Shown here: piece after piece, positions 14,855 to 48,436 of the stretch
Layout: each line of letters opens with the position of its first letter
Numbering within the stretch: the first letter of the stretch is position 1
From: an uncultured Planctomycetales bacterium
GTDB lineage: Bacteria > Planctomycetota > Phycisphaerae > UBA1845 > JAFGLZ01
Direction of reading: 5' to 3'
Assembly (NCBI GenBank): GCA_964550865.1
Contig: CAZKCX010000001.1
Coordinates: forward strand, 1-48,436
Length of the DNA stretch: 48,436 nt
Made by a program: the position numbers and the translations under genes
Notes under the pieces: model-generated
Databases searched by the model: none
Told to the model about the DNA's origin: nothing
Seen by the model: the letters and a program-made list of their open reading frames with translations, nothing else

Positions 14855-14947
14855 GGCACGAAGACAGAGGCGTTGAAAGGAGTCGCGGAACCGGACGGTG
14901 AGGGGGCGGTACTCCGTGACGGTAGCCCGTTGGGTTCCTTGGTCCCG

Positions 14948-22648: not shown

Positions 22649-24349
22649 GTGGCTGGCACCGTAGGCAACGTAGCCGTCAACGTCGGCGAGATCCTCCTGC
22701 AGAAGAACAAGATTACGCAGGAGAATCTGGATGAAGCGATGGCGGCCCGGAAGGGACCGACCGATCGCATCGACAAGATTCTGGTGAAGTTGGGCTTTGT
22801 CGACGAGCGTGACGTGCTCGAGGTGCTCGGAGAGAAGCTGGCGATCCCGTTGGTGGATCTCAGCGAGGCGGACATCGACGTCGAGATGCTGCGCGCCATG
22901 CCCAGCAAGCTCGTGCACCGTCGGGGCCTCATTCCCTTCGAGCGTACTAGCGACACCATGAAAGTAGCCACTTCGGATCCGTTCGACGTCTACGCGTTCG
23001 ACGAGCTGCGGATGATGACCGGTCTGAAGGTCGAGCCGGTGCTGGCCGTCCAGAGCGAGATCGATCGGGTCATCAAGAAGCACTACGGCGTGGGCGGCGA
23101 CGTCGTCGGGGAGATGATCCAGGAGGACGAGGTCGAAATCCTCTCCGACAGCGTCGACGAGAGCGGCGACGTCATCGAGATGGCCCAGGAGGCGAGCGTC
23201 GTTCGGCTCGTCAACGAGATCCTCGAGGAGGCGATCGCCGAGCGGGCGAGCGATATCCACATCGAGCCCTATGAGCACGATCTGAAGATCCGGTATCGCG
23301 TCGACGGGGTGCTGCACAATACGAACGTCCCCGCCCAGATCCGTCGGTTCCAGGCGGCTATCATCAGCCGGATCAAGATCCTGGCCAACATGAACATCGC
23401 CGAGAAGCGGTTGCCGCAAGACGGCGGATTCAAGGTGAAGTTCAAGGGCCGAGAGATCGACTTCCGTGTCAGCGTCGTGCCGACGGCCTTCGGCGAGGGC
23501 GTCGTGCTGCGTATCTTGGATAAGCAAACGTCGCTCGTCGAGTTGTCCGAACTCGGAATGAACGAAAGGCTGCTGGACGACTTCAAGAAGCTGATCTCCA
23601 GCCCCCACGGCATCATCCTCGTCACGGGCCCCACCGGTAGCGGTAAGACGACGACGCTCTATGCCTCGCTCAAGCAAATCGTCAGCGACGAGATCAAGAT
23701 CCTTACCGTAGAGGATCCGGTCGAATACGTGCTGGAGGGCGTCAACCAGGTTCAGGTACTGCCGAAGATCGGGCTGACGTTCGCCTCGGCGTTGCGGTCG
23801 TTCTTGCGGCACGACCCCGATGTCGTGCTTGTGGGCGAGATTCGGGACAAGGAGACGGCGGAGGTCGCCATCAATGCATCGCTGACGGGTCACCTCGTGT
23901 TCAGCACCCTGCACACGAACGATTCGGCCACAGCCCCGACGCGCCTGCTCGATATGGGCGTCGAGCCGTTCCTGATCAGCAGCTCGGTCGAGGGCGTGTT
24001 GGCCCAACGCCTCGTTCGGAAGATCTGTCCGGAGTGCAAGGAGGAATACGAACCGGATCCCGCCGCGCTGCCGCCGGACTTCGAGTATCAACCCGGCCAG
24101 AAGCTCTATCGCGGCAAGGGCTGCCGCCAGTGCCTGAACACGGGGTATCAAGGCCGCGTCGGCGTGTACGAACTCCTGCAGATGAACGAAGAGATCCGGG
24201 AATCGATCGTACAGCGGGAGTCGGCGGGCAGGCTGCTTGACATCGCGCGACGTCACGGGCTGAGGCTGCTTCGCGACGACGGCTTCGGTAAGGTCGTGCA
24301 GGGCCTGACGACGATCGAGGAGGTCTTGCGGCTGACGCGGATCGGATAG
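22649..24349 (+). CDS. gspE: type II secretion / type IV pilus assembly ATPase (GspE/PilB family)
   Basis: Walker A GPTGSGKTT, Asp box ILTVEDPVEY, Walker B PDVVLVGEIRD, His box GHLVFSTLHTN, tetra-Cys CPECK...CRQC, and an N-terminal MshEN/T2SSE_N-like domain. Start set at GTG 22649 (AAGGGG 7 nt upstream). ATG 22577 or the track start 22442 are alternatives. Confidence 0.92.
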   Translation: MAGTVGNVAVNVGEILLQKNKITQENLDEAMAARKGPTDRIDKILVKLGFVDERDVLEVLGEKLAIPLVDLSEADIDVEMLRAMPSKLVHRRGLIPFERTSDTMKVATSDPFDVYAFDELRMMTGLKVEPVLAVQSEIDRVIKKHYGVGGDVVGEMIQEDEVEILSDSVDESGDVIEMAQEASVVRLVNEILEEAIAERASDIHIEPYEHDLKIRYRVDGVLHNTNVPAQIRRFQAAIISRIKILANMNIAEKRLPQDGGFKVKFKGREIDFRVSVVPTAFGEGVVLRILDKQTSLVELSELGMNERLLDDFKKLISSPHGIILVTGPTGSGKTTTLYASLKQIVSDEIKILTVEDPVEYVLEGVNQVQVLPKIGLTFASALRSFLRHDPDVVLVGEIRDKETAEVAINASLTGHLVFSTLHTNDSATAPTRLLDMGVEPFLISSSVEGVLAQRLVRKICPECKEEYEPDPAALPPDFEYQPGQKLYRGKGCRQCLNTGYQGRVGVYELLQMNEEIRESIVQRESAGRLLDIARRHGLRLLRDDGFGKVVQGLTTIEEVLRLTRIG

Positions 24350-24434
24350 GATATCTGAGGCGGCACGCTCAGCGAATGCCCGCCAAGAGTACGGATACTG
24401 GAGTGAGACCTCAGTGGTATTGTGTCGGAGGGCG

Positions 24435-24459
24435 GTGTCCGCAGGCTTGCCTGCGACAC
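24435..24459 (+). terminator. stem-loop downstream of gspE (possible attenuator/terminator or RNA-processing site)
   Basis: GTGTCCGCAGG-cttg-CCTGC(G)GACAC-type hairpin, ~10 bp with one bulge and a tetraloop. It lies 86 nt after the gspE stop and has no U-tract. Confidence 0.25.
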
Positions 24460-24759
24460 GGGACATGCCAGGGAGCGAAGGAACGCGAGCGACTGCGTAT
24501 GGTGACGTAAGGACGGCAACGGTTCTCTCGATCGCGTCTACGCGGCATGGCCGTGTCGACGTCGACCAACCAACCCCGATTCAACCCCCTGAACGAAATA
24601 GAACCGAGAATTCGGGTAGGGTTATGGTAGTGGCCGATGGGTTGCGTGCATCTCGGCCCGTCGGTGTTGGTAGAATAGTTGGATTGAGGGAATTCTGGAG
24701 CGTGACTCGGGAGGTCGTTGAGGTGGGGTCCAAGACGAGACCCGCGGAGGTGATTCTCG

Positions 24760-24787
24760 TTGACTGGACCCCAAGACACTGTAAAAT
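24760..24787 (+). promoter_or_regulatory. sigma70-like promoter candidate upstream of gspF
   Basis: TTGACT (24760-24765), 16-nt spacer, TAAAAT (24782-24787), ~40 nt upstream of the gspF ATG. Bracketed by the inverted repeat CGTTGA...TCAACG (24758-24763 and 24787-24792). Confidence 0.3.
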
Positions 24788-24826
24788 CAACGACTTGTAA
24801 CGAACGCCGAGGTTGCCTACGGAACG

Positions 24827-26044
24827 ATGCCCACATTCAGCTACATCGCCAGGAACCCCCGAGGGGAGCAAGTCACCGGCGTGCTCACCGCGGAGAATCA
24901 GCAGGCCGCCCTCCGGACCCTCGACGATCGGCAGCTCTTTCCGATTGAGGTTCGGGAAGGGGGCATGGCGGCCCAGTCGGCCGTGCCGGGGTTTCGTCGC
25001 CGGATCAAGCTGTCCCACGTGGGTGGCATGTACGGACAGCTGGCCGACCTGCTGCGAGCCGGAGTGCCGGTGCTGCGGAGTCTGGACGTCCTCACCAAGG
25101 CGACGCCCAGCCCGACCCTGGTAGAGATCATTCGCGAGGTTCGAGACGACGTGGCCGGCGGCGAGGGCTTGGCCGACGCGATGCGGAAGCACCCGCAAGC
25201 CTTCAGCGAGCTGCACGTTTCCATGATTGAGGCCGGTGAGCGGGGCGGCTTCCTTGAAGACGTGCTTGCCCGCGTGGCCGGGTTCGTGGAGCGCCAGAAT
25301 GAGCTTCGCAACAAGCTGGTCGGCTCGATGGTCTACCCGATCATCCTGATGTCGGCGGGCATGGGCGTTTTGGTGATGATGCTGACGGTGGTCGTGCCGA
25401 AGATGCGTCCGTTCTTGGAGACGCTGGAGAAGAGGGGGGAGCTGCCGATGCTCACGATCGGCCTCTTCGCCGTGTGCGACTTCCTCTCGGCCTACTGGAT
25501 GTACGTGGGCATGGTCGTGATGGCGGGCATTCTGACGGCACTGCCGTATCTTCGGAGCGACGCGGGCAAGCTGGCCATCGACCGGATCAAGCTCAAGTTG
25601 CCGATGATCGGCAACATCGTGACGCTCGTGGCGATCTGCCGCTTCTGCCGTATTCTCGGGACGATGCTTGCCAACGGCGTGCCGATCCTGCAGTCGCTGA
25701 AGGTCAGCAAGGACTCGGCGGGCAATCGTGTGCTGTCCGAGGAGATCGACAGAGCCGCCGAAAGCGTGCGGCAGGGCGAGACGTTGGCGGGTCCGCTCGG
25801 AGAGAGCGGTCTGTTTCCGCCGGACGTGATCGACATGATCGCCGTCAGCGAAGAGGCGAACACGTTGGATACGGTGCTCGTAACCATTGCGGATACCAAC
25901 GAGGTCCGGGCCGCCCGGGTCATCGACCTGGCCGTTCGGTTGATTGAACCGATTCTGTTGCTCTTCATGGCCGGCATGGTGTTGGTGATCGCCCTGGCGA
26001 TCCTGGTGCCGATCCTGACGTCCAGTTCGGCCATGCGAGGATAA
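24827..26044 (+). CDS. gspF: type II secretion system / T4P platform protein (GspF/PilC family)
   Basis: 405 aa. Two T2SSF repeats (..LADLLRAGVPVLRSLDVL.. and ..LGTMLANGVPILQSLKVS..) and three TM segments. Confidence 0.92.
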   Translation: MPTFSYIARNPRGEQVTGVLTAENQQAALRTLDDRQLFPIEVREGGMAAQSAVPGFRRRIKLSHVGGMYGQLADLLRAGVPVLRSLDVLTKATPSPTLVEIIREVRDDVAGGEGLADAMRKHPQAFSELHVSMIEAGERGGFLEDVLARVAGFVERQNELRNKLVGSMVYPIILMSAGMGVLVMMLTVVVPKMRPFLETLEKRGELPMLTIGLFAVCDFLSAYWMYVGMVVMAGILTALPYLRSDAGKLAIDRIKLKLPMIGNIVTLVAICRFCRILGTMLANGVPILQSLKVSKDSAGNRVLSEEIDRAAESVRQGETLAGPLGESGLFPPDVIDMIAVSEEANTLDTVLVTIADTNEVRAARVIDLAVRLIEPILLLFMAGMVLVIALAILVPILTSSSAMRG

Positions 26045-26170
26045 GCATCGTGGGCGGCGGGTGCTCCGCCGCACGAGGAATTGCGTCATAGGCCCGTGTG
26101 TGCGGGCTCGACAAGAACCTTCGGAGAACAAGCACTACGTGTTGTGCGTGGTCAGACAGGAGAAGACACG

Positions 26171-26623
26171 ATGAGAAGTTACCGGAGAAAGGGATTCACG
26201 CTGTTCGAGGTGTTGCTGGTGATCGCCATCCTCGCGCTGCTCGCGGCGTTCGTCGCGCCGGAGCTCATGCGTACACAGCAGGACTCGAAGATCGACATGG
26301 CCAGGAACGCGCTCGGCCCGACGGGTCCGTTCGCGCAGTCGCTGGACATGTACAAGCTCCACATGGGTCGCTACCCCGAGGGGGAAGAGGGCCTGCGGAT
26401 GCTGCTCGAGCGGCCCGACGACGAGGAGGCCGACAAGAAGTGGCGGGGCCCGTATCTCAAGCGGAAGGAGATGCTCAAGGACCCGTGGGACAACGAGTAC
26501 TTCTACCGCTTCCCCGGCGAGTTCAAGGAGGACAGCTGGGAGATGTGGAGCGCCGGTCCGGATGGCGAGGAAGGCACCGAGGACGACATCAAGAGCTGGG
26601 AGACCGACGAAGACTTCGAATAG
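26171..26623 (+). CDS. gspG: major pseudopilin GspG-like
   Basis: ATG 26171 preceded by AGGAGA. Prepilin site RRKG/FTLFEVLLVIAILALLAAFVAP. GspG core: LDMYKLHMGRYPEGEEGLRMLLERP...WRGPYL...DPWDNEYFYRFPGE...WSAGPDGEEGTEDDI. Confidence 0.9.
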   Translation: MRSYRRKGFTLFEVLLVIAILALLAAFVAPELMRTQQDSKIDMARNALGPTGPFAQSLDMYKLHMGRYPEGEEGLRMLLERPDDEEADKKWRGPYLKRKEMLKDPWDNEYFYRFPGEFKEDSWEMWSAGPDGEEGTEDDIKSWETDEDFE

Positions 26624-26690
26624 GCTTCTGCGGCGTCGCTCTGGCCCGCGGTCGTCGGCCGGGGCCCGGGGCGACCTTGGATCTGTGGCC

Positions 26691-27569
26691 ATGTTCGGCC
26701 AGGCGTCGACAACGCGAAATGCGGGCAAGAATCCGTCGCGCGGCAAGGGATCGCGGGGCGGATTCGCCCTGAATGCACGAGGCGCATGCGCCGGTGCGTT
26801 CACATTGGTCGAGGTCTTGCTGGTGATCTCGCTGATCGGGTTGTTGATGTACTTTGTCGTGCCGGTCTTCACGGGCGAGTTGGAGCGGCGGCGCCTTACC
26901 GACTCGGTCGATCGGATGCGAAACATGGTGGCGCTCACGCGGGCGCATGCCATGAACGACGGGAAGCGCTATCGCATTCGGTGGGAAGACCAGGACATGT
27001 ACGACGAAGCCGAAGAGAACAATACCACGCTTCAGCCTATCATCGAGGTGGAGGACAAGCCCATCGAGGAACCGGCCAACTTCACGCCCGTGAAGGACCT
27101 GTGGTCGCAGGCGGAGGTCCTTCACGAGGGCATCCAGTGCGTCGAGGTCCGCCTGGGCAAGCCGAAGACTCCGGAACAGGAGCTGCGCGAACGCGAGCAG
27201 GAAGAGCGTTACGACGAGCTTGCCTCCCGCGTCGACGACATGTTTGAGGAAGACGACAAGCTCGAGGATATGTTCGAGGACATGGACGTCGACGAGGCGG
27301 GCACGGAGGAAGAGAAGGACCCGGTTCGGCCCGCCATCGTGTTCGAGCCCGACGGCACCGTCGAATGGGCGACCATCTTCCTGACGAACGGCGAGGAGAC
27401 CGACGAGGGTGAGCTGCAGACCTGGGAGATCCTCATCGACGCGCGCACGGGCAAGATCGGGTGGCGCCGGACGCTCACGGAAGCGGAGTACGAGGAGCAG
27501 TTGGCCGAGCGGGAGGAGATCCAGGAAGAGCGCAAGATCGTTCGCGGTCGGGAAGCGGGAGCGCGATGA
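26691..27569 (+). CDS. minor pseudopilin, GspH-like, with long acidic insertion
   Basis: ATG 26691. Prepilin-type N-terminus CAG/AFTLVEVLLVISLIGLLMYFVVP followed by RRRLTDSVDRMRNMVALTRAHAMNDGKRYRIRW (GspH-like). Highly acidic segment: EQELREREQEERYDELASRVDDMFEEDDKLEDMFEDMDVDEAGTEEEKD. Confidence 0.6.
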   Translation: MFGQASTTRNAGKNPSRGKGSRGGFALNARGACAGAFTLVEVLLVISLIGLLMYFVVPVFTGELERRRLTDSVDRMRNMVALTRAHAMNDGKRYRIRWEDQDMYDEAEENNTTLQPIIEVEDKPIEEPANFTPVKDLWSQAEVLHEGIQCVEVRLGKPKTPEQELREREQEERYDELASRVDDMFEEDDKLEDMFEDMDVDEAGTEEEKDPVRPAIVFEPDGTVEWATIFLTNGEETDEGELQTWEILIDARTGKIGWRRTLTEAEYEEQLAEREEIQEERKIVRGREAGAR

Positions 27570-28513
27570 TGCCGTGGGCGCCGTGTCCATCCCAATCTGT
27601 CGTTCGGGGCGCGTCGCGTCGCGCCGCGATGCTGCTCGAGGTGCTGATCTCGATCGCCATCATGGTGTTGGCGATCGCGACGATCGGGGCCCAGGTCAGC
27701 AATTCGCTGAACGCGGCGGACTACACCGACAAGCTCAACCGCGGGCTGATGCTGGCCGAGTGGGTGATGGCCGAGATGGACCTACCGGCAGAGGAAGAGG
27801 ATCGGTTGGTGGACATCCACGGCGAGGAGGGCGAGGGCACGTTCGGCGAGCGTTACCCGGGCTTTGCATGGCGGATTCGCCGCGAGCCCACGGACGTCGA
27901 CAACCTCGACCTGATCTCGTTGGAGATCCTCACCGGGGATCCGGAAGAGCCCGACCTCGACAGCTGGGACGTCTTGCACACGGTCTACGCGTTGCGGCCG
28001 ATCGTGGCCGAGTTCGATCCGACGGATTTCGGCATGCCGAGCGAAGAGGACATCGGTCTGCTGGCTGCTGCCACGCCGCCGACAGGGGAAGACGGGACGG
28101 TCCCCGGGGCGCTCCCTCCGGAGCTGGAGGAGCTGTTGGCGGCCTTGCCCATGCCGATGCAGGAGATCTTCCAGCGGATCCTCGGCGGCGAACCCGTCCC
28201 GATGGACGAGATTCGCACCGCGATCAGCGAACTGACGGCGGAGGACCTGCTGGGATTGCTGACGACGCCGGCGCTCTTTGGCGTGTTGACCGGCGGGATG
28301 GGCGGGATGATGGGAGGCGGGGGTGGTGGCATTCCCGGCCTGGAGCAGCTGCTCGGCGGCGGCGCCGGTGGGGCCGACACGCAGGCCCTTCAGAAGGCGC
28401 TGCAACAAGGGAACCTGCCCAACCAGCAGGCGCTTCCGTCGGCGCTGGGCGGAGAGGACCTGGACACCGGGCAGGCGGAAACCCCGGGACGGCGACGGAG
28501 ATTTCGACGCTGA
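27566..28513 (+). CDS. minor pseudopilin, GspI-like, with Gly/Met-rich C-terminal tail
   Basis: ATGA overlap with the previous gene. N-terminus RRAAMLLEVLISIAIMVLAIATIG...RGLMLAEWVMAEM (GspI-like, no canonical Gly at -1). Tail: GGMGGMMGGGGGGIPGLEQLLGGGAGG. Confidence 0.55.
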   Translation: MMPWAPCPSQSVVRGASRRAAMLLEVLISIAIMVLAIATIGAQVSNSLNAADYTDKLNRGLMLAEWVMAEMDLPAEEEDRLVDIHGEEGEGTFGERYPGFAWRIRREPTDVDNLDLISLEILTGDPEEPDLDSWDVLHTVYALRPIVAEFDPTDFGMPSEEDIGLLAAATPPTGEDGTVPGALPPELEELLAALPMPMQEIFQRILGGEPVPMDEIRTAISELTAEDLLGLLTTPALFGVLTGGMGGMMGGGGGGIPGLEQLLGGGAGGADTQALQKALQQGNLPNQQALPSALGGEDLDTGQAETPGRRRRFRR

Positions 28514-28520
28514 GACGATC

Positions 28521-29669: not shown

Positions 29670-29712
29670 TCGGCGGACCGGGCGCGCGGCGGGTGCCGTG
29701 CGGAGGTCTTGG

Positions 29713-32833: not shown

Positions 32834-32900
32834 ACCGCCTCTGCGCTCGACGCGGAAGCGGTGGGTTCGGCGAATGGGGAAGGCGGATAGGCGATAGAGC

Positions 32901-33962: not shown

Positions 33963-34078
33963 GCGTATGCGCCCCTTCGGCAGGGAAGGCCGGGGCGGAG
34001 GCGCTTCGACAACCTCAACACCGCGGGGGTCCGCGTGCGATTCAGGCCCGGGCCGACGAACCGTGGAGGGATGTCCTT

Positions 34079-40000: not shown

Positions 40001-43000
40001 CTGCCCCTGGAACGGACCGACTGCGAATACATGGCCAGCGTGATCCAGCAGGTCTTCACACCCGAGGAGCTCAAGCGCCGTCGCGTCCGTCGCGGCATGT
40101 CCTCGCAGGACGCCATCCCGATCCGCGTCGTGCCCGAGCCGACGACGAACACGCTGCTGGTTACCTGCGCGGAGGAGGACTTCCGCGAGATCGAGCTCTT
40201 CGTCGCCCGGCAAGAGGACGCGTATCGGGAGAAGGAGAAGGCCCTCGAGCTGATCACGCCGAAGTACGTGACGGAAAGCCAGCTGATGGCCACGGTGAAC
40301 GCGATCTACAACCCGCCGCGTCGTCGCGGGGAGCGCCAGAAGCGCTATACGGAGATCCGCGCAATCCCGGCCAGTGGCAGCAGCTTCTTCCTGGAGGCGC
40401 CGAAGGACAAGATGGAAGAGCTGAAGGAGCTGATCGCCAAGCTCGACGTCGAAGACCAGAACCGGCCCGTCGTCCGTACCTACAAGCTCAAGGACGTCGA
40501 CGTGCGGCAGCTCACGCGGCTGCTCCAGACCACGATGCAGAACAAGGGAAGCTTCATCGCGGACCCGCGAATGGGCATGGTCATCGTCAGCGCTCGGGAG
40601 TTCCAGTTCCCCGAGATCGAGGAGATGATGACCAAGCTCCAGAAGGACTTCGAGGAGACCCGCCAGCAGTTCGAGATCATCGAGCTCGAGCACGCGCGGC
40701 CGAGCTCGGTCTACAGCACGCTCAGTCAGCTGGTCAGCATTCGCATGAGTGAGCGGCGGAGTCGACGCGGCCAAAGCCTTCAGCTCTCGATGATTCCGGA
40801 CGACAGCAACGGGCGGTTGTTCGTCTATGCCGCCCAGGAGGAGATGGAGCTGGTCAAGGAGATGCTCGGGAAGCTGGACATCCCGGGGATGATCAAGGAG
40901 GCCCAGCTCTTCACGATCGAGTTGGATCGTCTGGATTGCAGCTATATGGCCAGCAAGATCCAGCAGGTCTTCACGCCGGAGGAGCTCAAGCGCCGGCGCG
41001 TCCAGCGCGGCGATTCGGCCCAGGACCTGATCCCGATCCGCGTCGTCCCCGAGGACATGACCAACTCCCTCCTGATTACCTGCGCCGAGGAGGACTTCCA
41101 GGACATCCAGAAGTTCGTCATGGAGCGCGAGGCCGCCTACACGAAGAAGGACAAGGTCCGCGAGCTGATCACGCCGAAGTTCATCAGCCAGAACCAGCTG
41201 ATGGCCACGATCAATGCCATCTACAATCCCCCGCGGCGGCGGGGGGTGCGTCAGAAGGACGTGCCGGACATCCGGGCGATCCCCGCCAGCGGCAGCAGCT
41301 TCTACCTGGAAGCGCCCAAGGACAAGATGCCCGAACTGCTCGAGCTGGTGAAGACGCTCGATGTCGAGGACGAGAACCAGCCCGTCGTGCGGACCTACCG
41401 CGTCAAGGACGTGGACGTCCGCCAGCTCGCGAGCCTGCTGCAACAGACGATGCAGAACAAGGGCAGCTTCTATGCGGACACGCGGATGGAGATGCTCATC
41501 GTCTCGGCCCCGGAGTTCCGGTTCGAGAAGATCGAGCAGACGATGAACGATCTAAAGGAGAACCTTGAGGCCGTCCGTCAGCAGTTCAAGGTCTTCCCGC
41601 TGAAGTTCGCCAAGGCGAGCAACATCTATAGCCAGCTCAGCCAGCTCGTCACGACACGCGTTCGCGGACGTCGGGGCAACGCGGAGCTGACGATTCTGCC
41701 CGACCAGGTGCTCAACCGCCTCTTCGTGTACGCCGGTGACGAGGAGATGAAGGTCGTCGAGGACATGCTCGCCGAGCTGGACGTCGAGGGCGTCGAGCCC
41801 GAGCAGCAGGTCTACTCGATCGAGCTGGAAAACGCCGACTGCAGTTGGGCCGCGTCCATGGTCCAGAACATGTTCACGCAGGAGGAGCTTCGCCGGCGTC
41901 GTCGGGGTCGGACCGGAACCGTCGTCGCGCCCATCCGCGTGCTGGCCGATCAGATGAGCAACCGCCTGCTGATCTGGGCCTCGCCCCGCGACTACGAGGA
42001 CATCGAGAAGTTCGTCATGGAGCTGGACGAGCGCGCGGAGGAGACCAAGATCGAGCGGCGGATCCTCCAGCCGAAGTTCATCCGCGCGAACGAGCTGTAC
42101 GGCATGATCCAGACGCTGTTCCTTCAGCAGCGTCGACGGACCGGCCAGCGCCAAGAGTTCATCGAGACGTTCATGGTGATGAGCGGGGCCGACATCATCC
42201 TAAATGGCCCGAAGGACCGGCTCGACGAGATCGAACAATTCGTCAAGTCGGTCGATACCGAAGAGCGCGCCAAGCTCGAGATCAAGACCTTTGAGCTGCC
42301 CGACGTCGATCTGAACTCGCTCATCTCGATGCTCAACCAGGTCTTCGCGCAGGATGCGCGGCGGCAGCGCGGCAACACGCTCTTCATCCCGGATCCGCAG
42401 AACAACGAGTTGATGGTCTCTGCACCGAAGTCGCTGATGAAGGACATCGAGGAGTTGATCGACAAGAAGCGCGAGGGCGCGGCCAAGCGAAGCCGCAGGC
42501 TCACGATGGTCGAGGTCAAGCACACCGACGCGAACTACCTGGCGAACATGTTGCGCCCCTTAATCGTCGAGAAGGCGCGAAGCCGTCGCGGTCGGTACGT
42601 CCAGCCGGAGGTCACGATCACCCCCGAGCCGCGCATGAACCGGCTGTTGATCATGGCCGCCGAGGCCGAGACGCAGATCGCCATGGAGCTGATCCAGGAG
42701 CTGGACACCGAGGCCATGGCGCTGAAGGGACAGGTCCGGACGATCGAGCTCAAGAAGGCGGAGGCCAGCTACGTCGCCAGTACGCTCCAGACGATGTTCA
42801 GCCGACGGAGCCAGATGCGCCAGTCGTACTCGTCCTCGACGACACCGGTGTACGTGGTGGCCGAGGAGATGACGAATCGGCTCTTCGTGGCGGCCAGTGA
42901 TGCGGACTTCAAGGAGATCGAGAAGCTCGCCCAGGAGATGGACGAGGCCGCCGAGCTGGAAGGCGTGCAGGAAGAGAAGATCGAGATCAAGTTTGCCAAC

Positions 43001-46000
43001 CCGAGCCAGCTCGTCAGCGTGATCCAGCAGATGTTCACGCCGCTCAAGAGCCGCGGCCGTCGGCAGGAGAGCGACGTCCGGTTGAACGTGATGGGCACAA
43101 ACATCATCGCCCAGGCGCCGGCCAAGAAGATGGTCGAGATCAAGCGGTGGATCCAGGAGCTGGACGTCGAGGAATTCGCCGAGACGGTGACGAAGTTCAT
43201 CCCGTTGGAGATCGCCCGCGCGCGGGAGATCGTCGGCATCATCCAGCCGATGCTCCAGGCCAAGGCGCAGGAGCTGGAGCTTCGGCAGGGCCAGCGGAAG
43301 CGTCGCGGCGGGGAGCTTCAGGTGTTGCCGGACGTCCGGAACAACCGCCTGATCATTACCGCGCAGAGCCAGATCGTCACGATGGCCGAGGAGTTGATCA
43401 AGGAGCTCGACGTCGAGGACCCGGCGTGGACGGGGGAGACGGTGGAGATCGTCGACCTCGACAAGGCCGACGCCACACAGGTCGCCCAGGTGCTCGACCA
43501 GATTCTGCGCGACGACGAAGGGGGGCGCCGGCGCCGGCCGAAGAAGGGCAGCAGTCGAGAATACACCGGACTCGCGGTCACGATCGTGCCCGATGCGGCC
43601 AGCAATACCCTCATCCTCAAGGGCCTGCCGCGCGAGCTGGATCGCGTCAAGGAACTGGTCGCGGAGATCGAGGAGAAGGCCGTCGCCGGCGGCGTGCAGT
43701 TCCAGCTCTATCGTTTGGAGGAGTCGGACGCCGAGGAGGTCGCCACCGTCGTCCAGCAGATGGTCACGGCGGCAAGCGGCGCGCGAGGCCGCCGCGCGCC
43801 CGTCCAGGTCACGAGCAACTACATGATGAACGCGGTCTTCGTGGCGGGCACGGCCAAGCAGCAGACGATGGCCAAGGCCGTGATCGACGCGTTCGAGGAG
43901 CCCGCCTACGAGATCGACCCGGTGACCGGTGAGAAGACCCTTATCGAGCGAAAGCCGTTCGAGTTCATCACGCTGGAGTACTCCGACGCGTACGATCTGC
44001 TTTATGACATCGAATCCCTCGTGGAGAAGCGGTTTGGTGAAAAGGGACCAACGCTCGAGACCCTCTGGAATGACTCGTCGGTGCTAATGGTCAGCGGCAA
44101 GCCCGACCAGGTGAAGTACGTCAAGGAGTTGGTCCAGTTCTTCGAGGACAAGAACGCCAAGAAGCCGCCCGTCACGCGGACGTTGGACCTGGGCATGCTC
44201 AGGGCGGAGGATCTCAAACGCCAGCTCGGTGCCTGGGGATTGGCCGATCCGAACAAGGTGACGCTCGTGGGCGAGGAGCCCGTCGGCGAGCTGGTCAAGG
44301 AGATCACGATCAAGCACGCGATGGAGCTTCGCCAGCAGGCAAAGGACCCGAACTTTTCGGAGAAGGAAGGGGGGCGCACGCGATCCAAGAAACTCTATCG
44401 CAAGCCCAAGACGAAGAAGGGCGGTTCGCGGTTCGAGCCGCCGAGCGTACTCGCGGAGTTGCGGGCGGAGTTAAGTGGCATCGTTTGCTCGGCCAAGGCC
44501 ACAACGACGAAGCCCGTGACCACACAGCGGACCAAGACGCTGAAGATCCGCAAGAAGAAGGCGCCGACCACCGCAGCGGTCAAGAACGCGGCGACGGTGA
44601 AGGCCAAGGCCAAACCCAAGTCTCCGCCGGCGACGAAGAAGCAAGATCCCAAGGCGAAGTCGTCGGGCAAGGCCAGGGCCGATGCGGCGAAAGCCGCCGC
44701 CGAGAGGAAGCAGGATCCCAAGGCCAAGAGTGCGCCGAAGAAGGCCGACTCGCCGTCCGCGGCCGACACCAAGAAGATCCTAGGCAAGTCCAAGCCGAGC
44801 AAGTCGACCGCCGAGCCGGTCGTCAGGCAGGCGACGACGGCGCCGCCGAAGGCCATCCAGGTGGCCACGCCCGACAAGTCTGAACCGAAAGCAAAGCAGC
44901 GGTCGTCGCGCAAGCCGGCCGCGAAGTCGAACGCCAAGACCGCCCCAGCGAAGACCAAGCCCGCCAGCGCCAAGAAGGATCCCGAGGCAAAGGCGGCCAA
45001 GACGGAGGCGGCACCTTCGAAGGCGGGCGGCTCGGAGGCTGCGAAAAAGGCCGCCACGGCAGAGGCCACGGAACCCGTAGCGCCGAGGCGCGAGTCCTCG
45101 GACGCCGAGTCCCTTGGCCTCGGGATGCGGCGAACTCGGGGCGATGAGCCAAGGCAGCGAAGGCAGCCGCCGGTTGAGGTCATCATCGACGCGAAGACGG
45201 GCACCATTCAGGTTAAGGGTCCCGACCGCAAGGTGGCGGAGATCGAGGAGTTGATCGGTACGCTCCAGTGGGAGATCGAGCCGCCGGCCGGCAAGGAGAC
45301 CGAGATCCGGGTCTATCAGCCCGAGTACATCGACGTGAACGTAGCGGCGGCGCTGTTGGAACGGGTGTTCAACGAGCGGCGCAAGCGGGTTGTTCCTCCC
45401 AAGCGGACCGCGCAGAAGGGCAAGAAGGAGGAGAAGAAAGAACCGGACGAGGAAGAGCGGATGATGTCGAATCTCCGCGAGATGATGCGAAGCCAAGGGG
45501 CAGCCGCCGCGGCGGCGGGGCTCCGCATCGTGCCGGATTCCCGTACGGGCTATCTCGTGATTCGGGGCCATCCCGAGACGATCGAGGAGGCCCTCGAGCT
45601 GTTGGCGAAGATGGACGTGCCGGGCCTGCCGCCGGGGGATATCCGGTACTTCCACTTGGTGAACCTGGACGCCCAGGAGGTCGAGCAGAGCCTCAAGGCC
45701 GTTCTGAAGCTCGAGACCCGACGGCCGAAGCTGCCGGCGATCCCGAAGGATCAGAACAAGGCCATCAAGGCCCTCCAGCAGCAGATCCAGCAGCTGCAAG
45801 GTGCGACGGGTGGCGTGGCGTTTACAAGCGATCAGGTGACGATCACGTCCAACGCCTCGACGAATACGTTGATCTGCATGGCGCCGGACGAGGTGATGAA
45901 GGAGATCGAGGACTTCATCGACACGCTCGAGACCGAGGCGGGCGGCATCGAGATCGAGACGCTCACGCTCGATGCGGCGGACGCCACGCAGGTCGCCAAG

Positions 46001-48436
46001 TCGATGACGTCCCTGTACAGCCGTCGTGCGGCGGCCGGCAAGGGCAGCGCGGCCGGTGGATTGCTGACGATCACCGCCGACGCGGCGAGCAACACGATCT
46101 TCGTCCGCGGCCCGAGGGACCTCCGCGCCGAGGTGATCGCGCGAGTCAAGGAGCTCGACTCGCAGGCATCTGAGATGGGCAAACCCTTCCGCATCGAGCT
46201 GACGAACGCCGACGCCGAGGTGATTGCCCCGAAGCTGCAGGCCATGTTCGAGACGCGGAAGGCGCGCAAGAGCCAGCAGGTGTCGTTCTTCGGCGACAAC
46301 GCGAGCAATACCCTGGTGGTCCGCGCGCCGGAGACCATGCGCGAGCAGATCATGGAGATGGTCAAGGCGCTGGATGTGGAGTCGGTCGACATCGACTTCC
46401 GCGTGTTCCCGCTCGAGCACGCGATGGCGACCGAGGTCCATCAGGCGCTCACCCAGATGACGATGCAGGTCTTCGCCCAGCTTCGCCAGCAGGGAAAGCG
46501 AAACATGAAGATGGACGTCTTCGCGGCCGTTCCCGATCCGCGGACGAATTCGCTGGTGGTCACGGGCGGCGAGACGACGTTCCTGATCGTCGAGAAGATC
46601 CTCTCCCAGCTGGACGTCGAGCCGCGCGGTGTGACCGAGCAGGTGACCGTGCTCTATCAGCTCCAACAGGCGGATGCCTCACAGGTCGCTCAGGCGATCA
46701 CCCGTCTGTACTCGAGCGGACGTGGCAGCCGGTACCTCAAGAAGACAGGGATGGAACCCCCACAGGCGGAGTACGACAGCATCACCAACACCGTGATCGT
46801 CCGCACCACCGAGAAGCTGCACAAGATGATCAAGAAGGAGATCATCGATAAGCTCGAGGACTTCAGCAAGAACAAGAAGATCAAGGACGTCACGCTCGCG
46901 CTGGAGCACGCCAAGGCCGACGACGTCGCCCAGATCCTGACGGAGTACTTCTCGCAGAAGGAGCGCCGACGGCGGGGCAAGGCGAACCCCAACGACTTCG
47001 TCCTGATCGTCGCGGAGCCCGACACCAACTCCCTCCTCATCCAGGCCAACGAGGAGAATCTGGAGGTCATCCAGGGACTCGTTGCGAAGATGGATCGCGA
47101 GGACGTCGCCGGCCGGAGCGCCCGCAAAACCAAGGTGATCCAGCTCGAGTACGCCGATCCGGGCTCGACGGCGTCGGCGATCCGCCAGGCGTTTGAGGAT
47201 GGGCGGCGGAGTCGTCGCAGTCGCGTGGGCCTTCGGGATCGCGTGGACGCCGTGCCGGAGTACACCACAGGCAGCCTGATCGTGACGGCCAGCGCCGAGA
47301 ACATGAAGGAGGTCGACGCGATCATCGAGCAGCTGGACGTCGAGACCGCCACGAAGCGCGAGACCAAGCAGGTCAAGCTCGAGCACGCCGACGCGACGGA
47401 AGTGGCCCGTCAACTCACGCAGATGTTCTCCCAGACGCGGGGCCGGACGCGACGCGGGATCCTGCCGGTGATCGTGACGGCGGACGAGCGGACGAATTCC
47501 GTGATCGTTTCGGCGAAGGCGAAGGACCTTACCGAGGTCGAGAAGCTCGTCAAGACGTTGGACGTCCCGAGCGACCTGCTGGAACGTCGCAAGCTGCGGA
47601 TCTTCCAGCTCGAGTGGGCCGATCCGTACGGGATGGCCCAGATGATCTCCCAGGCGTTCCGTACCCGAGGTGGGCGGCGGAGCCCCAGCCAGGAGGTCTT
47701 CGCGACGGCGGAGTACTCGACGGGCTCGCTGATCGTCTCGGCCTCGCCGGACAACATGGAGTTGATCGAGCAACTGGTCAAGGACGTGGACCAGGAAGGC
47801 ACGACGGGAAAGAAGATGCACGTGCTGGAGGTCAAGAACGCCGAGGCGGCCGACATCGCCGACGCGCTCGAGGACATGTTCGTCCGCGGTCGCCGCCGAT
47901 CGCGAGGCGGCCAGACGCCGGTCTCCCTCGTCAGCCCGGAGGGCACGAACAAGATCATGGTGATGGCCAGCGAGGCGGAGTACAAGAAGATCGCCGAGGC
48001 CGTGCAGGAGATGGACGTCGGCGCGGCCGATACCGCCGTCCGGTCGATCCGGCTGGTGAACATTGCGCCGGAAGAGGCGCAGACGATCCTCGAGGAGTTC
48101 CTGCGCAAGCCGGGGCGCCGCAGGCGATACGACCCGACGCTCATGGGCAACGTCCGCGTGACGGTGAGTCCGTCGGCGGGATCGCTGATCATCACGGCGC
48201 GGAAGGAGAAGCTCGACGAGCTGGAGGCGCTCATCAAGAAGATCGACGCCGAGGCCGCGGAAGAGGGCGCGGGCGTCCGCAAGATCGCCGTCTTCCGCCT
48301 GGATTTCGCCAATCCGTACTACACCGCTCAAGCGATCAGCACGACGTTCCGGAAGTCCGGGCGGGTGGCCGAGAGCGATCTGGTGACGGCGACCGCCGAG
48401 GCGAGCACGAGCGCGGTGATCGTCGCGGCCAGCGAG
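34079..48436 (+). CDS. giant secretin-family (GspD/PilQ-like) protein: signal peptide + N0-like domain + ~53 tandem secretin N-domains; 3' end outside window
   Basis: Not in the ORF track because the frame never closes. No closed plus-strand ORF is listed in this frame after 34079. Manual codon-by-codon translation found no stop over 14,358 nt, which is exactly 4,786 codons. SD GGAGGG at 34064-34069. Signal peptide MISSLLWRLRRRSGVVALAIGMAVAGGDGVLAAEA. N0-like domain KYVLSFQKATWDEILNTFCRWSGLTIMG...TYHEALHELNLLLMQN. Repeated 70-85 aa units follow the consensus h.h.L..A.A..VA..L..MF-(Arg-rich loop)-h.h..D..TNSLhV.A......IE.Lh..LD. Confidence 0.85.
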   Translation, partial: MISSLLWRLRRRSGVVALAIGMAVAGGDGVLAAEAPARKGATTQSARRSPTTLPAKSKSATVDRAKLAEAMRRARTSTQRAAATARARAEALARQRQATQARTSEESNPSKTALSAEERRNRFKRRLQEIRERSRKSPTTSVETRQLAKNSTPKAPAPKANNKNGAQGRPTPPPAAPQPPPEERKYVLSFQKATWDEILNTFCRWSGLTIMGKYPTTTGDGITYINQRPLTYHEALHELNLLLMQNIPSYYLMREKNHLMLRRMSDWPHYVPMDNRFYSVEEFKKAEIDDDEWAMVFYTPEVSDVGEVITEILQTMPDGVVLPATMGETRRLKVTGIVHYIRQFIRLAESDMFKDEAADAAKLRKIKFYKIERAQASSVQQVLERIVLPPKRTRFTSADESQKVDMVLDQLSNTIIVKAREEHHREIEAMIEKIEKAELVSDAQVTFLKLEHARAEDLANLMNPLLQRQASMKPSFDRRQREREQVYLQADPASNSLIVLAAKEGLERVKKLLEQLDVETPEAQYRRIELEHVNADQIFTVVNNIVQSRQGRFRGRRGGGQQLQVMPDPTGNALFVMGNPKDMEFVEELVAELDAEDVERTKTHIIKLKKARPSMVSQGLQAIFGGDTGGRRRRTPTGSFRALPDDQSGVLVVICLDKDWKEIEQQIKEFDEQSVSTDPVMRTIPITHGDAEEIATTLNNALRGRLGRTPVTVGADRKNNMLFVTTLEPAFEEIESLIEKLDKPSKEGKLEVIPLQHASATDVANLITQMFTVTRSRGRFGGGGTAPVIIPDQIANALVVRATKTDLAEIELQAARIDDAARDEGNRPTIIPLEYADPSQVASMCETMFIRRTSRRSRSAEQTTFFMPIPTGLVVRAPSQQMGEIKDFIETVDSPESVNVEIKTVQLPGQDVEQIASILQNMFAGERRRRSGGGSINFLPNPSSDMLVITAPKKRFEEIDKVIQQYTEGVKVAQASMKMIDLNNARADEVAQLLTEMLGAKLGRRGRRSEMRQVQILRDPRQNKLIVFAPDDIMQQAEEMVKQLDVPIGDEGGVRWIELENADASYVASTLQQMWETKQRRGRPRFEQLPVQIWAEAITNSVLVMASQEDYKEIEKLAKELDSKFKSATTQPTIVKLKYAEPSYVITMCQEMFLPRAGQRPGARRSKATESISFIPMRDGLMVRAPQSRMKDILEFIERLDDPGETKLTVKRYHLKGMDVQTLYTTLSEVFSKTDLQRDEPRPGFAVDPPNETVTVTCWTSRLPDIEKVVEDFKKAEAEKEPSKREMIEVKYTRATYAASTLESLLRKELGDRAARLGSRLSIGVEDRLNRVVVFAPPDVMEKAKAILATIDVKMPGATTRASDIDFQVVKWIPMENIDASSAASTINQIWEASQPPRRSQENRPPIRIWPETITNTVLVAGAYGKEYELIETIAQDIDQKAIENPNKPILIKLDYATPSEVTSMVEALFVPPGRRRQKEVMISTVSGGVIVRAPKVKLKEIQEFIDSYDEPDATGLKIQTFYLPQTNVSELASTLSTIFGYKERRRNEPGWSFIPNTDADMLMVLAPETRMKEIEEVIKEYEENVQKMTSKMQMFDLQFTRADYVVGVLNDLLREKLRRTRGRRAVNQLQISYESRQNKVVVFAPDEVMKQVEEMIKQIDIELPDEGDRVKWIQIEYADAGEVAQTVEQMFEQKRGSRRRRDSYSIREVRIWPERVTNSILVSADQEDYEEIEKLAKKIDEEYATKGLERVKITPKYVSVSQIQSLIDSLFYARTHRRDVRHQTQRIRIIPAGAYSFFLEAPKDKLSEVQKLIEEMDTEGENAPIVKTFKMGDVDVRQLAQALSMTTGNIGSYMPDPRRGALIVSAPKHQFDRIEKAMEQLKADIEEEEAQFRVFTLKHAQPNAIDGQLRSLISMRLSRRTRYRGEDLRLSLMADRSNNRLFVYAGPEEMALVESMLEELDVPGLSQEAVLRTLPLERTDCEYMASVIQQVFTPEELKRRRVRRGMSSQDAIPIRVVPEPTTNTLLVTCAEEDFREIELFVARQEDAYREKEKALELITPKYVTESQLMATVNAIYNPPRRRGERQKRYTEIRAIPASGSSFFLEAPKDKMEELKELIAKLDVEDQNRPVVRTYKLKDVDVRQLTRLLQTTMQNKGSFIADPRMGMVIVSAREFQFPEIEEMMTKLQKDFEETRQQFEIIELEHARPSSVYSTLSQLVSIRMSERRSRRGQSLQLSMIPDDSNGRLFVYAAQEEMELVKEMLGKLDIPGMIKEAQLFTIELDRLDCSYMASKIQQVFTPEELKRRRVQRGDSAQDLIPIRVVPEDMTNSLLITCAEEDFQDIQKFVMEREAAYTKKDKVRELITPKFISQNQLMATINAIYNPPRRRGVRQKDVPDIRAIPASGSSFYLEAPKDKMPELLELVKTLDVEDENQPVVRTYRVKDVDVRQLASLLQQTMQNKGSFYADTRMEMLIVSAPEFRFEKIEQTMNDLKENLEAVRQQFKVFPLKFAKASNIYSQLSQLVTTRVRGRRGNAELTILPDQVLNRLFVYAGDEEMKVVEDMLAELDVEGVEPEQQVYSIELENADCSWAASMVQNMFTQEELRRRRRGRTGTVVAPIRVLADQMSNRLLIWASPRDYEDIEKFVMELDERAEETKIERRILQPKFIRANELYGMIQTLFLQQRRRTGQRQEFIETFMVMSGADIILNGPKDRLDEIEQFVKSVDTEERAKLEIKTFELPDVDLNSLISMLNQVFAQDARRQRGNTLFIPDPQNNELMVSAPKSLMKDIEELIDKKREGAAKRSRRLTMVEVKHTDANYLANMLRPLIVEKARSRRGRYVQPEVTITPEPRMNRLLIMAAEAETQIAMELIQELDTEAMALKGQVRTIELKKAEASYVASTLQTMFSRRSQMRQSYSSSTTPVYVVAEEMTNRLFVAASDADFKEIEKLAQEMDEAAELEGVQEEKIEIKFANPSQLVSVIQQMFTPLKSRGRRQESDVRLNVMGTNIIAQAPAKKMVEIKRWIQELDVEEFAETVTKFIPLEIARAREIVGIIQPMLQAKAQELELRQGQRKRRGGELQVLPDVRNNRLIITAQSQIVTMAEELIKELDVEDPAWTGETVEIVDLDKADATQVAQVLDQILRDDEGGRRRRPKKGSSREYTGLAVTIVPDAASNTLILKGLPRELDRVKELVAEIEEKAVAGGVQFQLYRLEESDAEEVATVVQQMVTAASGARGRRAPVQVTSNYMMNAVFVAGTAKQQTMAKAVIDAFEEPAYEIDPVTGEKTLIERKPFEFITLEYSDAYDLLYDIESLVEKRFGEKGPTLETLWNDSSVLMVSGKPDQVKYVKELVQFFEDKNAKKPPVTRTLDLGMLRAEDLKRQLGAWGLADPNKVTLVGEEPVGELVKEITIKHAMELRQQAKDPNFSEKEGGRTRSKKLYRKPKTKKGGSRFEPPSVLAELRAELSGIVCSAKATTTKPVTTQRTKTLKIRKKKAPTTAAVKNAATVKAKAKPKSPPATKKQDPKAKSSGKARADAAKAAAERKQDPKAKSAPKKADSPSAADTKKILGKSKPSKSTAEPVVRQATTAPPKAIQVATPDKSEPKAKQRSSRKPAAKSNAKTAPAKTKPASAKKDPEAKAAKTEAAPSKAGGSEAAKKAATAEATEPVAPRRESSDAESLGLGMRRTRGDEPRQRRQPPVEVIIDAKTGTIQVKGPDRKVAEIEELIGTLQWEIEPPAGKETEIRVYQPEYIDVNVAAALLERVFNERRKRVVPPKRTAQKGKKEEKKEPDEEERMMSNLREMMRSQGAAAAAAGLRIVPDSRTGYLVIRGHPETIEEALELLAKMDVPGLPPGDIRYFHLVNLDAQEVEQSLKAVLKLETRRPKLPAIPKDQNKAIKALQQQIQQLQGATGGVAFTSDQVTITSNASTNTLICMAPDEVMKEIEDFIDTLETEAGGIEIETLTLDAADATQVAKSMTSLYSRRAAAGKGSAAGGLLTITADAASNTIFVRGPRDLRAEVIARVKELDSQASEMGKPFRIELTNADAEVIAPKLQAMFETRKARKSQQVSFFGDNASNTLVVRAPETMREQIMEMVKALDVESVDIDFRVFPLEHAMATEVHQALTQMTMQVFAQLRQQGKRNMKMDVFAAVPDPRTNSLVVTGGETTFLIVEKILSQLDVEPRGVTEQVTVLYQLQQADASQVAQAITRLYSSGRGSRYLKKTGMEPPQAEYDSITNTVIVRTTEKLHKMIKKEIIDKLEDFSKNKKIKDVTLALEHAKADDVAQILTEYFSQKERRRRGKANPNDFVLIVAEPDTNSLLIQANEENLEVIQGLVAKMDREDVAGRSARKTKVIQLEYADPGSTASAIRQAFEDGRRSRRSRVGLRDRVDAVPEYTTGSLIVTASAENMKEVDAIIEQLDVETATKRETKQVKLEHADATEVARQLTQMFSQTRGRTRRGILPVIVTADERTNSVIVSAKAKDLTEVEKLVKTLDVPSDLLERRKLRIFQLEWADPYGMAQMISQAFRTRGGRRSPSQEVFATAEYSTGSLIVSASPDNMELIEQLVKDVDQEGTTGKKMHVLEVKNAEAADIADALEDMFVRGRRRSRGGQTPVSLVSPEGTNKIMVMASEAEYKKIAEAVQEMDVGAADTAVRSIRLVNIAPEEAQTILEEFLRKPGRRRRYDPTLMGNVRVTVSPSAGSLIITARKEKLDELEALIKKIDAEAAEEGAGVRKIAVFRLDFANPYYTAQAISTTFRKSGRVAESDLVTATAEASTSAVIVAASE
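36322..43170 (+). repeat. in-frame tandem super-repeat of a four-N-domain cassette (period ~900-945 nt, ~7.5 copies) inside the giant secretin gene
   Basis: Type-a domains start at ~36322, 37238, 38181, 39086, 39987, 40901, 41803 and 42728. Three copies are in exact 915-nt register, anchored at 39440, 40355 and 41270. Confidence 0.7.
44340..45170 (+). other. Lys/Ala/Pro/Thr-rich low-complexity spacer (~275 aa) embedded in the giant secretin ORF
   Basis: Translation: ...RSKKLYRKPKTKKGG...TKPVTTQRTKTLKIRKKKAPTTAAVKNAATVKAKAKPKSPPATKKQDPKAKSSGKARADAAKAAAERKQDPKAKSAPKKADSPSAADTKK...KPAAKSNAKTAPAKTKPASAKKDPEAKAAKTEAAPSKAGGSEAAKKAATAEATEP... Confidence 0.8.

Follow-up and report, generated by a model that had tools for sequence, protein, structure and literature searches.

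The contig CAZKCX010000001.1 of an uncultured Planctomycetales bacterium (assembly GCA_964550865.1), 48,436 bp in length and analysed as a whole, is referred to below as the window. From position 22649 to its end, the window carries on the + strand ten co-oriented genes related to those of type II secretion systems (T2SSs) and type IV pili, the last of which is a giant gene of the secretin family with a reading frame open to the contig end. These genes probably constitute the main operon of a planctomycete envelope machine of the T2SS class, a member of the type IV filament family, with the outer part based on two secretin-family polypeptides. The genes, numbered from 1 to 10, and the features within and between them are as follows:

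22649..24349, + strand: gene 1, GspE-type assembly ATPase, 566 amino acids (aa), with an N-terminal MshEN domain (Pfam, NCBIfam)
24350..24826, + strand: spacer between gspE and gspF, 477 nucleotides (nt) (sequence comparison)
24827..26044, + strand: gene 2, GspF-type inner-membrane platform protein, 405 aa (Pfam, NCBIfam)
26171..26623, + strand: gene 3, GspG major pseudopilin, 150 aa, prepilin signal KG/FTLFE (Pfam, NCBIfam)
26691..27569, + strand: gene 4, GspH-like minor pseudopilin, 292 aa (NCBIfam GspH 8.1e-10, below cut-off)
27566..28513, + strand: gene 5, GspI-like minor pseudopilin, 315 or 314 aa (weak; sole NCBIfam match GspI, 1.7e-3)
28521..29669, + strand: gene 6, GspJ-like minor pseudopilin, 382 aa, or 358 aa if the start is at 28593 (NCBIfam GspJ 1.3e-5)
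29713..31269, + strand: gene 7, GspK minor pseudopilin, 518 aa (Pfam, NCBIfam)
31244..32833, + strand: gene 8, PilM-like actin-fold domain followed by a transmembrane (TM) segment and a periplasmic domain, 529 aa (Pfam, NCBIfam, PDB)
32901..33962, + strand: gene 9, bitopic PilO/GspM-like protein, 353 aa, with a conserved additional beta domain at the C-terminus (NCBIfam, AlphaFold 2, Foldseek)
34079..48436, + strand: gene 10, giant secretin-family protein, 4,786 aa in the window, cut at the contig end (Pfam, own hidden Markov model (HMM))
34601..34810, + strand: N0-type domain, residues 175-244 of the giant protein (own HMM, E 9.2e-5)
35174..48436, + strand: array of 54 Secretin_N (ring-building) domains, ~78-aa repeats from residue 366 of the giant protein (own HMM)
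44276..45127, + strand: Lys/Ala/Pro-rich low-complexity insert of ~285 aa in the alpha1-beta2 loop of one N domain (sequence)

The G+C content at third codon positions (GC3) is 0.82–0.90 in each of the ten genes; spurious open reading frames (ORFs) are common in this window because its overall G+C content is ~63%. Independent Logan contigs of the same DNA, from the samples SRR7048223-5, give gene calls of 566/405/150/292/314/358/518/529/353 aa, followed by a cut-off large ORF. An earlier reading made from the sequence alone, called here the original prediction, had described this gene order, and synteny on related contigs indicates that the order is real and conserved in several lineages of Planctomycetota: it is kept in four lineages, whose gene 9 products are 38–47% identical. 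The tight junctions described in that reading are also present, namely ATGA at 27566-27569, where the start of gene 5 overlaps the stop of gene 4, and GTG at 31244, which sits 26 nt inside the end of gspK. The family matches of genes 1–7 identify the upstream block as the canonical gspE-F-G-H-I-J-K series, and with the putative L and M equivalents that follow it, the sequence of assignments E-F-G-H-I-J-K-L-M is the canonical gsp order.

HMM searches clearly place the product of gene 1 among the assembly ATPases of T2SSs. It matches Pfam T2SSE (3.9e-142) and MshEN (1.2e-19), scores 644.1 bits with NCBIfam TIGR02533 (GspE), above the cut-off of 630.25, and scores 614 bits with TIGR02538 (PilB), below the cut-off of 675.65. 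Residues 1-65 (window 22649-22850) score 43.3 bits, above the cut-off of 38, with NF053729, an MshE-related motif for cyclic diguanylate (c-di-GMP), and c-di-GMP may control the machine. A second copy of the c-di-GMP motif in GspE, RIDKILVKLGFVDERDVLEVLGEK, is well preserved. The product of gene 2 matches Pfam T2SSF in two stretches (2.2e-52, 176.7 bits versus a cut-off of 25.2), and its top NCBIfam match is GspF (TIGR02120) with 350 bits, below the equivalog cut-off of 424.

The pseudopilin genes follow. The GspG protein encoded by gene 3 matches Pfam T2SSG (2.9e-27) and N_methyl, and scores 118.8 bits with NCBIfam TIGR01710, above the cut-off of 88.85. The GspK protein encoded by gene 7 matches Pfam T2SSK_1st (1e-16, 62 bits versus a cut-off of 26.2) and T2SSK (9.6e-8, 32.7 bits versus 24.2), its NCBIfam GspK match (1.8e-23, 83.5 bits) lying below the cut-off of 130; Glu at position +5 is absent, as is usual in GspK. 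Gene 4 encodes a protein with a weak N_methyl match and a single N-terminal hydrophobic segment, AFTLVEVLL. The Pfam search gave no match for the product of gene 5, the hydrophobic N-terminus of which is AMLLEVLISIAI, and the product of gene 6 matches N_methyl (4.5e-4) and has the prepilin signal AG/VTLLE, the Logan gene calls giving it 358 aa. Four minor pseudopilins had been predicted; GspK is clear, and the H-, I- and J-like proteins have prepilin-type N-termini but sub-threshold family matches.

The product of gene 8 is related to PilM. It matches Pfam PilM_2 (6.6e-23, 81.6 bits versus a cut-off of 27) and NCBIfam PilM (TIGR01175, 1.2e-29, 103.5 bits, below the cut-off of 133), then the NCBIfam Amuc_1101 family (5.5e-21), and GspL at just 1.3e-5; the Amuc_1101 match covers just positions 61-205 of the 608 of the model and is far below the family cut-off. 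All its PDB sequence matches are PilM structures (5eox, 5.4e-14; 2ych; 3jc8_M). The protein comprises a cytoplasmic domain of ~350 aa, a TM segment at 353-377, a coiled coil and an alpha/beta region, and this predicted architecture is of the GspL type. For the periplasmic part, no PilN family match and no PDB sequence match were found, and a single weak match to GspL_C (E 0.11) covers most of that profile; the C-terminal part is thus not assignable to PilN or GspL. A PilM–PilN fusion had been proposed for this gene: the PilM half holds by every sequence test and the topology agrees with a fusion, but for the PilN half it is the topology that speaks.

The product of gene 9 was found to be PilO-like at the level of fold. 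The Pfam search gave no match, no PilO sequence family was matched, and the NCBIfam match to GspM_XpsM (1.3e-4, residues 9-158) has 21.7 bits, below the cut-off of 60. The AlphaFold 2 model, made with a 10-sequence alignment (mean predicted local distance difference test (pLDDT) score 70.5, with 75-90 in the domain that matches PilO), contains a TM helix, a long helix, a ferredoxin-like domain (75-175), a disordered segment (185-246) and a beta domain (250-325). A Foldseek search with this model found PilO of M. xanthus (3jc8_O, 5.3e-5) and of P. aeruginosa (2rjz, 4.4e-4), 5uvr (6.3e-3) and Akkermansia Amuc_1100 (2.3e-3), and none of the top 50 entries was named GspM or EpsM; since the PDB neighbours are PilO proteins, the PilO-like assignment made in the original prediction is supported at the fold level. 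The matches of genes 8 and 9 to the Amuc_1101 family and to the Amuc_1100 structure likewise agree with the link to the Planctomycetes–Verrucomicrobia–Chlamydiae (PVC) superphylum that had been proposed. Taken over all these families, the HMM annotation bore out E, F, G, K and PilM, the matches to H, I, J and GspM were sub-threshold, and PilN gave no match.

The C-terminal beta domain of gene 9, modelled alone, reached a pLDDT of 90.6. Its identity as the PilP/GspC HR domain was considered and is unsupported, as the best Foldseek match in the PDB had E 0.32 and a PDB profile search found nothing. A profile search against 1.84 billion representative proteins indicated that the gene 9 family is large: 1,306 clusters (50% identity) pass E <= 1e-3, 434 also pass E <= 1e-10, and in most clusters the match spans both domains. 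The family has no name among the Pfam and NCBIfam models.

The giant protein encoded by gene 10 begins with a signal peptide and a basic low-complexity linker of ~150 aa, followed by the N0-type domain and 54 Secretin_N domains, and its full size, by orthology, is ~5,540 aa. The Pfam search gave 38 Secretin_N stretches with a total of 1172 bits. The N0 domain was found with an own HMM, derived from the segment before N1 in ~60 GspD proteins that carry the PF21305 annotation, and the Pfam N0 models gave no match on the giant protein; the same own HMM matches the giant orthologues of two related loci, L009 (1.6e-5) and L011 (1.6e-11). An N0 domain at the N-terminal end of the long array, as the original prediction had it, is therefore well founded. 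When the N-terminal 574 aa of this protein served as the query, no homologue was found, the low-complexity linker having probably swamped the word index.

The N domains are tightly spaced, with linkers of 6-10 residues throughout 4,000 residues, and their alpha1-beta2 loops are basic and variable. The domains appear to be old copies, since they are just ~22% identical on average; identity between domains four apart is higher (mean 0.33, maximum 0.75, versus ~0.22 at other lags), which indicates growth of the array via duplication of four-domain units. The resulting super-repeat of ~305 aa is clearest at residues 1750-2650, with as much as 75% identity between domains four positions apart. After the ~285-aa insert in one alpha1-beta2 loop, the interrupted N domain resumes at HMM position 23. 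Lys/Ala/Pro-rich basic segments occur three times, at 34180-34600 after the signal peptide of the giant protein, at 44276-45127, and at 14230-14900 of the related locus L004, after the signal peptide of the secretin described below; they could serve as spacers or as binders of peptidoglycan or membranes.

The secretin pore domain, PF00263, was found by Pfam neither in the 4,786 aa of the giant protein nor elsewhere in the window. Giant orthologues from three related lineages, with lengths of 4,974, 5,414 and >4,632 aa, also end without a pore domain, and Secretin_N is the only real Pfam family in the two complete ones of 4,974 and 5,414 aa. Lengths of the giant orthologues were read from contigs, and the C-terminal protein search listed only proteins of up to ~1,025 aa, which are partial fragments. 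The name "giant secretin", given in the original prediction, therefore does not fit: the giant ORF is not a secretin proper, every complete orthologue lacks the pore, and the pore resides on a second gene.

This second gene was found in L004, a locus from an uncultured Planctomycetales metagenome-assembled genome (MAG) that is collinear with window positions 36659-48436 at 75-80% nucleotide identity. The giant ORF of L004 stops 754 aa past the point corresponding to the window end, with N domains up to its end and no PF00263 in its last 1,138 aa. The gene downstream encodes a secretin of 1,868 aa with its own signal peptide, a Lys/Ala/Pro-rich linker, ~14 N domains and PF00263 (2.5e-53), in which the own N0 HMM found no match (E 0.29). 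In the genome studied here, the corresponding secretin is inferred by orthology because the contig ends inside the giant gene. It was also correctly predicted that the secretin-family genes stand at the 3' end of the operon.

A scan of metagenomes with the whole L004 secretin as the lone query found nothing, and a scan with an alignment of secretin pore regions yielded 48 loci. The two-gene split recurs in four of them, L013, L014, L015 and L052, which, among the loci with upstream sequence preserved, lie nearest to the L004 secretin. Across these five split loci, which come from different samples, the downstream secretins have 1,500-1,900 aa, ~10-15 N domains, PF00263 and no N0; their C-terminal regions are 45-69% identical to that of L004. 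The gap between the giant ORF and the secretin gene was put at 107-216 nt across the five loci, the secretin gene of L004 being read as beginning after 229 nt, and the two ORFs are in the same frame in L004, L014 and L015 and in different frames in L013 and L052. The start of the secretin reads as a signal peptide in L004, L014 and L015, with a basic linker next in L004 and L014. Joining of the giant and secretin genes by read-through or frameshift was considered and is unlikely, given the differing frames in L013 and L052 and the signal-peptide-like N-termini in L004, L014 and L015.

The split falls within an N domain. In all five loci, the C-terminus of the giant protein consists of just half an N domain, the first one (HMM positions 1 to ~33), with an Arg-rich tail, and the first folded element of the secretin is the complementary half, which runs from HMM position 36-47 to 69 in four loci and starts from 15 in L013. 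All five split loci also have, directly 3' of the secretin gene, a gene for a lipoprotein of ~190-210 aa (lipoboxes LAGC, VVGC):

L004 19830-20411, L014 11385-12026, and also in L013, L015 and L052: conserved lipoprotein, directly after the secretin

This lipoprotein is 55-63% identical in three loci and matches at E 1e-8 to 1e-10 in two, belongs to no Pfam family, and is followed by unrelated genes. It is a candidate pilotin or PilP/GspC-like adaptor.

Giant secretins encoded by a single ORF were found in most other loci of the pore scan and in three Verrucomicrobiota loci; they occur in Verrucomicrobiota MAGs and on unassigned metagenome contigs:

L006 2063-13789: single-ORF giant secretin, from a Verrucomicrobiota MAG
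L007 2168-13867: single-ORF giant secretin, from a Verrucomicrobiota MAG
L039 311-11143: single-ORF giant secretin
L047 791-10927: single-ORF giant secretin

The complete proteins of this form have 3,379-3,915 aa, an N0 domain, 30-38 N domains and a pore, and the incomplete ones have up to 43 N domains. In this form, long N arrays are seen to terminate in a pore. Their pore domains are 41-46% identical to that of L004. The giant secretin genes of L006 and L007 have no gsp neighbours, with ilvC downstream and a divergently oriented gene upstream. The simplest history would be that one giant secretin was split in this planctomycete lineage, one N domain being broken at its basic alpha1-beta2 loop. 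No description of secretins with dozens of N domains or of split secretins was found in the full-text literature searched, from which most subscription journals are missing, and an earlier description elsewhere is possible.

Among the window ORFs tested, there was no prepilin peptidase (Peptidase_A24, GspO/PilD), no PilT and no PilA-type pilin. The absence of GspC and of a prepilin peptidase from the window had already been pointed out, and it stands; GspF is the only polytopic membrane ORF with a coding signal in the window. The accompanying suggestion that some missing parts lie elsewhere finds an example in the lipoprotein gene that follows the secretin in the related loci.

The operon shares with the canonical T2SS of Proteobacteria (Gsp/Eps/Pul/Xcp) the E-F-G-H-I-J-K-L-M order, a GspE and a GspG above the equivalog cut-offs, the GspK domains, a putative L equivalent that is bitopic with a cytoplasmic actin-like domain, a putative M equivalent that is bitopic, and a secretin-family outer channel. 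Unlike the canonical system, the window has no gspC and no gspO, and its secretin-family genes are located 3', not 5' together with gspC. Here PilM is the model that fits the L equivalent (1.2e-29, versus 1.3e-5 with GspL), the M equivalent combines a PilO fold with an additional beta domain, and, whereas GspD has three N domains and N0, ~78 N domains are distributed here over two genes. The likeness to PilMNOPQ of type IVa pili lies in the succession of a PilM-like gene, a PilO-fold gene and secretin-family genes. In contrast to those pili, the PilM-like domain is fused here to a TM and periplasmic part, which is why there is no separate PilN gene; no PilP and no AMIN domains were detected, the single ATPase is below the PilB cut-off, the window lacks PilT and PilA, and the major subunit is of the GspG type. 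The term "hybrid" T2SS/type IV pilus, used in the original prediction, is thus in part a question of nomenclature: likeness to PilM and PilO, in sequence or fold, is confined to the L and M equivalents, and the gene order, the ATPase and GspG are those of a T2SS.

In Akkermansia muciniphila, also a member of the PVC superphylum, a secretin gene shares a cluster with genes of the PilM-like and Amuc_1100/PilO-like kinds (Amuc_1098-Amuc_1102; PMC5332112), and genes 8 and 9 resemble the Amuc_1101 model (5.5e-21) and the Amuc_1100 structures (E 2e-3), respectively; unlike the present operon, that cluster comprises five genes, with no gspE, gspF, gspG or gspK listed (PMC5332112). PilQ of Thermus, called "exceptionally long", has six rings, and its extra N domains stretch the channel over a wide periplasm (PMC5745081), but it is one chain of 757 residues, compared with ~78 N domains on two chains here (~5,540 and ~1,870 residues). 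In Omnitrophota, a very large gene lies directly 3' of a conserved T2SS-like locus (bioRxiv 10.1101/2023.11.21.568195). The Omnitrophota giants contain many TM regions, SecA DEAD-like domains and carbohydrate-binding/adhesion domains, not N-domain arrays, and the word "secretin" is absent from that paper (bioRxiv 10.1101/2023.11.21.568195); they are different proteins and a loose parallel only.

The components described suggest how the machine might work. The GspE ATPase, with its MshEN domain, and the GspF platform would assemble a GspG filament, primed by a tip complex of the GspH/I/J/K-like proteins. The PilM-like protein, built as GspL, would hold the platform, and its partner would be the PilO-fold protein with the extra periplasmic beta domain. 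In known secretin systems, N0 contacts the inner-membrane platform, and the HR domain of GspC binds the N0 of the secretin. The giant protein, completed by orthology, has N0 and ~63.5 N domains and no pore, and the second secretin opens with half an N domain, continues with ~14 N domains and carries the pore. The two would dock end to end, possibly rebuilding the split N domain, and the docked pair would present ~78 ring domains, as a stack or a flexible chain, from the inner-membrane platform to the outer-membrane pore. Such a stack would cross the unusually wide and variable planctomycete periplasm and would sheathe either a long GspG filament or the path of a substrate.

Several points weigh against this picture of a T2SS-class machine with a two-part outer channel. 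At ~3 nm per ring, our own estimate from published secretin structures, ~78 rings would measure 200-250 nm, a length that greatly exceeds the normal width of a periplasm and would be thinkable only where the periplasm is very wide, as in planctomycetes (PMC5394234). A substrate would need to enter a closed tube at its base. The oligomerisation of the N domains is predicted here from sequence, not taken from structure or experiment. Among the window ORFs tested, there was no family match to GspC or PilP, and the GspL and GspM models score poorly on genes 8 and 9. The best matches of genes 4–6, to GspH, GspI and GspJ in that order, are all below the curated cut-offs and mostly cover the N-terminal helix. 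The half-domain matches on the secretin side are weak in score, and the downstream secretin is unseen in this genome, as the contig ends before it.

Perhaps the machine does not secrete folded proteins but builds a surface fibre (pilus), with the N array as a sheath to guide it through the periplasm; this is rather unlikely, and the fibre role is kept as the main rival since a very long closed tube would accommodate a long GspG-type filament more readily than substrates entering laterally from the periplasm. [quoted passage not shown] The PilM-like and PilO-fold alignment proteins encoded by genes 8 and 9 are consistent with a pilus, as are the MshEN N-terminus, found also in the ATPases of MSHA pili, with its c-di-GMP motif above cut-off, and the similarity to Amuc_1101 and Amuc_1100, whose cluster was proposed to form pili-like structures (PMC5332112). 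However, both the ATPase and the major subunit score above the T2SS equivalog cut-offs and the PilB score stays under the cut-off of that model, GspK with T2SSK domains is encoded in the operon, the major subunit is of the 150-aa GspG type, neither a PilT-type retraction ATPase nor a PilA-type pilin is encoded in the window, and the crateriform structures are a candidate link only, to which the operon itself is not tied.

It is improbable that the giant N-domain protein is a flexible tether resembling beads on a string, a spacer or an envelope scaffold, and not a conduit of stacked rings. Such a protein would keep the platform joined to the outer-membrane pore as the width of the periplasm changes, or would organise the periplasm. 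The extreme length predicted for the stack would be in keeping with this, and so would the three long Lys/Ala/Pro-rich linkers (at the giant N-terminus, in the ~285-aa insert and at the secretin N-terminus), the variable basic alpha1-beta2 loops and the variation of array length with lineage (4,974, 5,414 and ~5,540 aa). Nevertheless, Secretin_N domains form stacked rings in every solved secretin (PMC5745081), the N domains here are regularly packed, with 6-10-residue linkers over 4,000 residues, and N0 is situated at the far end, as in working secretins.

That the split is an artefact of assembly or sequencing, or a pseudogene left when one gene was inactivated by a recent mutation, is hardly credible: repeats do break assemblies, the Logan contigs and the window contig all stop within the giant gene, the verrucomicrobial relatives carry one ORF, and the two ORFs are in frame in L004, L014 and L015, but the same boundary recurs in five loci from different samples, each with a gap, an Arg-rich C-terminus and a new start, L013 and L052 have the two ORFs in differing frames, and in other genomes the gene callers give complete products of 4,974 and 5,414 aa without PF00263.

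Some other features of the window can be mentioned. The gspE–gspF spacer is also long in L009 and L011 (375-380 nt), with conservation restricted to ~50 nt at its 3' end; a small ORF and an RNA family were sought in 24350-24826, and no conserved ORF and no Rfam match were found. The conserved stretch overlaps a sigma-70-like TTGACT-16-TAAAAT at 24760-24787, a promoter match no better than chance, and a promoter of their own may serve gspF and the downstream genes. A tRNA gene, which likely marks the 5' boundary of the operon region, separates gspE from the upstream genes:

21752-21824, - strand: tRNA-Lys (anticodon TTT)

Farther upstream, 2.5 kb before gspE, a gene at 19369-20178 (+ strand) encodes a protein with a prepilin-type N-terminus, AYTLLEVLIAVGIL (N_methyl 2e-5), which could be a further substrate of the same prepilin peptidase. 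Just before it, the gene at 18629-19366 (+ strand) encodes a single-TM protein with an N-terminus that looks anti-sigma-like by eye. The region 8554-11358 (- strand), where the G+C content falls to 0.58, encodes, in three adjacent genes, a Vsr very-short-patch endonuclease (2.3e-30), an HNH endonuclease with a winged helix and a C-5 cytosine DNA methyltransferase (4.4e-69), and looks like a restriction-modification or repair island. Positions 1-8000 and 13253-14854 contain sulfatase, GH2 glycosidase, purple acid phosphatase-like, PEP hydrolase-like and UPF0261 genes, and such a content of hydrolases is typical of planctomycetes.

Work on secretins usually deals with single chains that form one to six rings in the periplasm. 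In the present system, the periplasmic part is more than ten times longer than in described secretins, and the N0 docking end and the pore end are on different proteins. If the domains stack as in known secretins, the system would set a new scale for trans-envelope machines, would give a molecular handle on how the motor is connected to the pore across the enlarged and variable planctomycete periplasm, and would offer a natural case in which to test the assembly of N-domain rings and the joining of two ring stacks. A bolder suggestion, speculative and on the whole unlikely, is that some Planctomycetota possess a tube of ~0.2 micrometres linking the inner membrane with the outer one, formed by two secretin-family proteins that are joined via an N domain split by gene fission, possibly as the periplasmic part of the crateriform/fibre apparatus. 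If true, it would be the longest secretin conduit known, and it might belong to an apparatus implicated in the binding and uptake of macromolecules.

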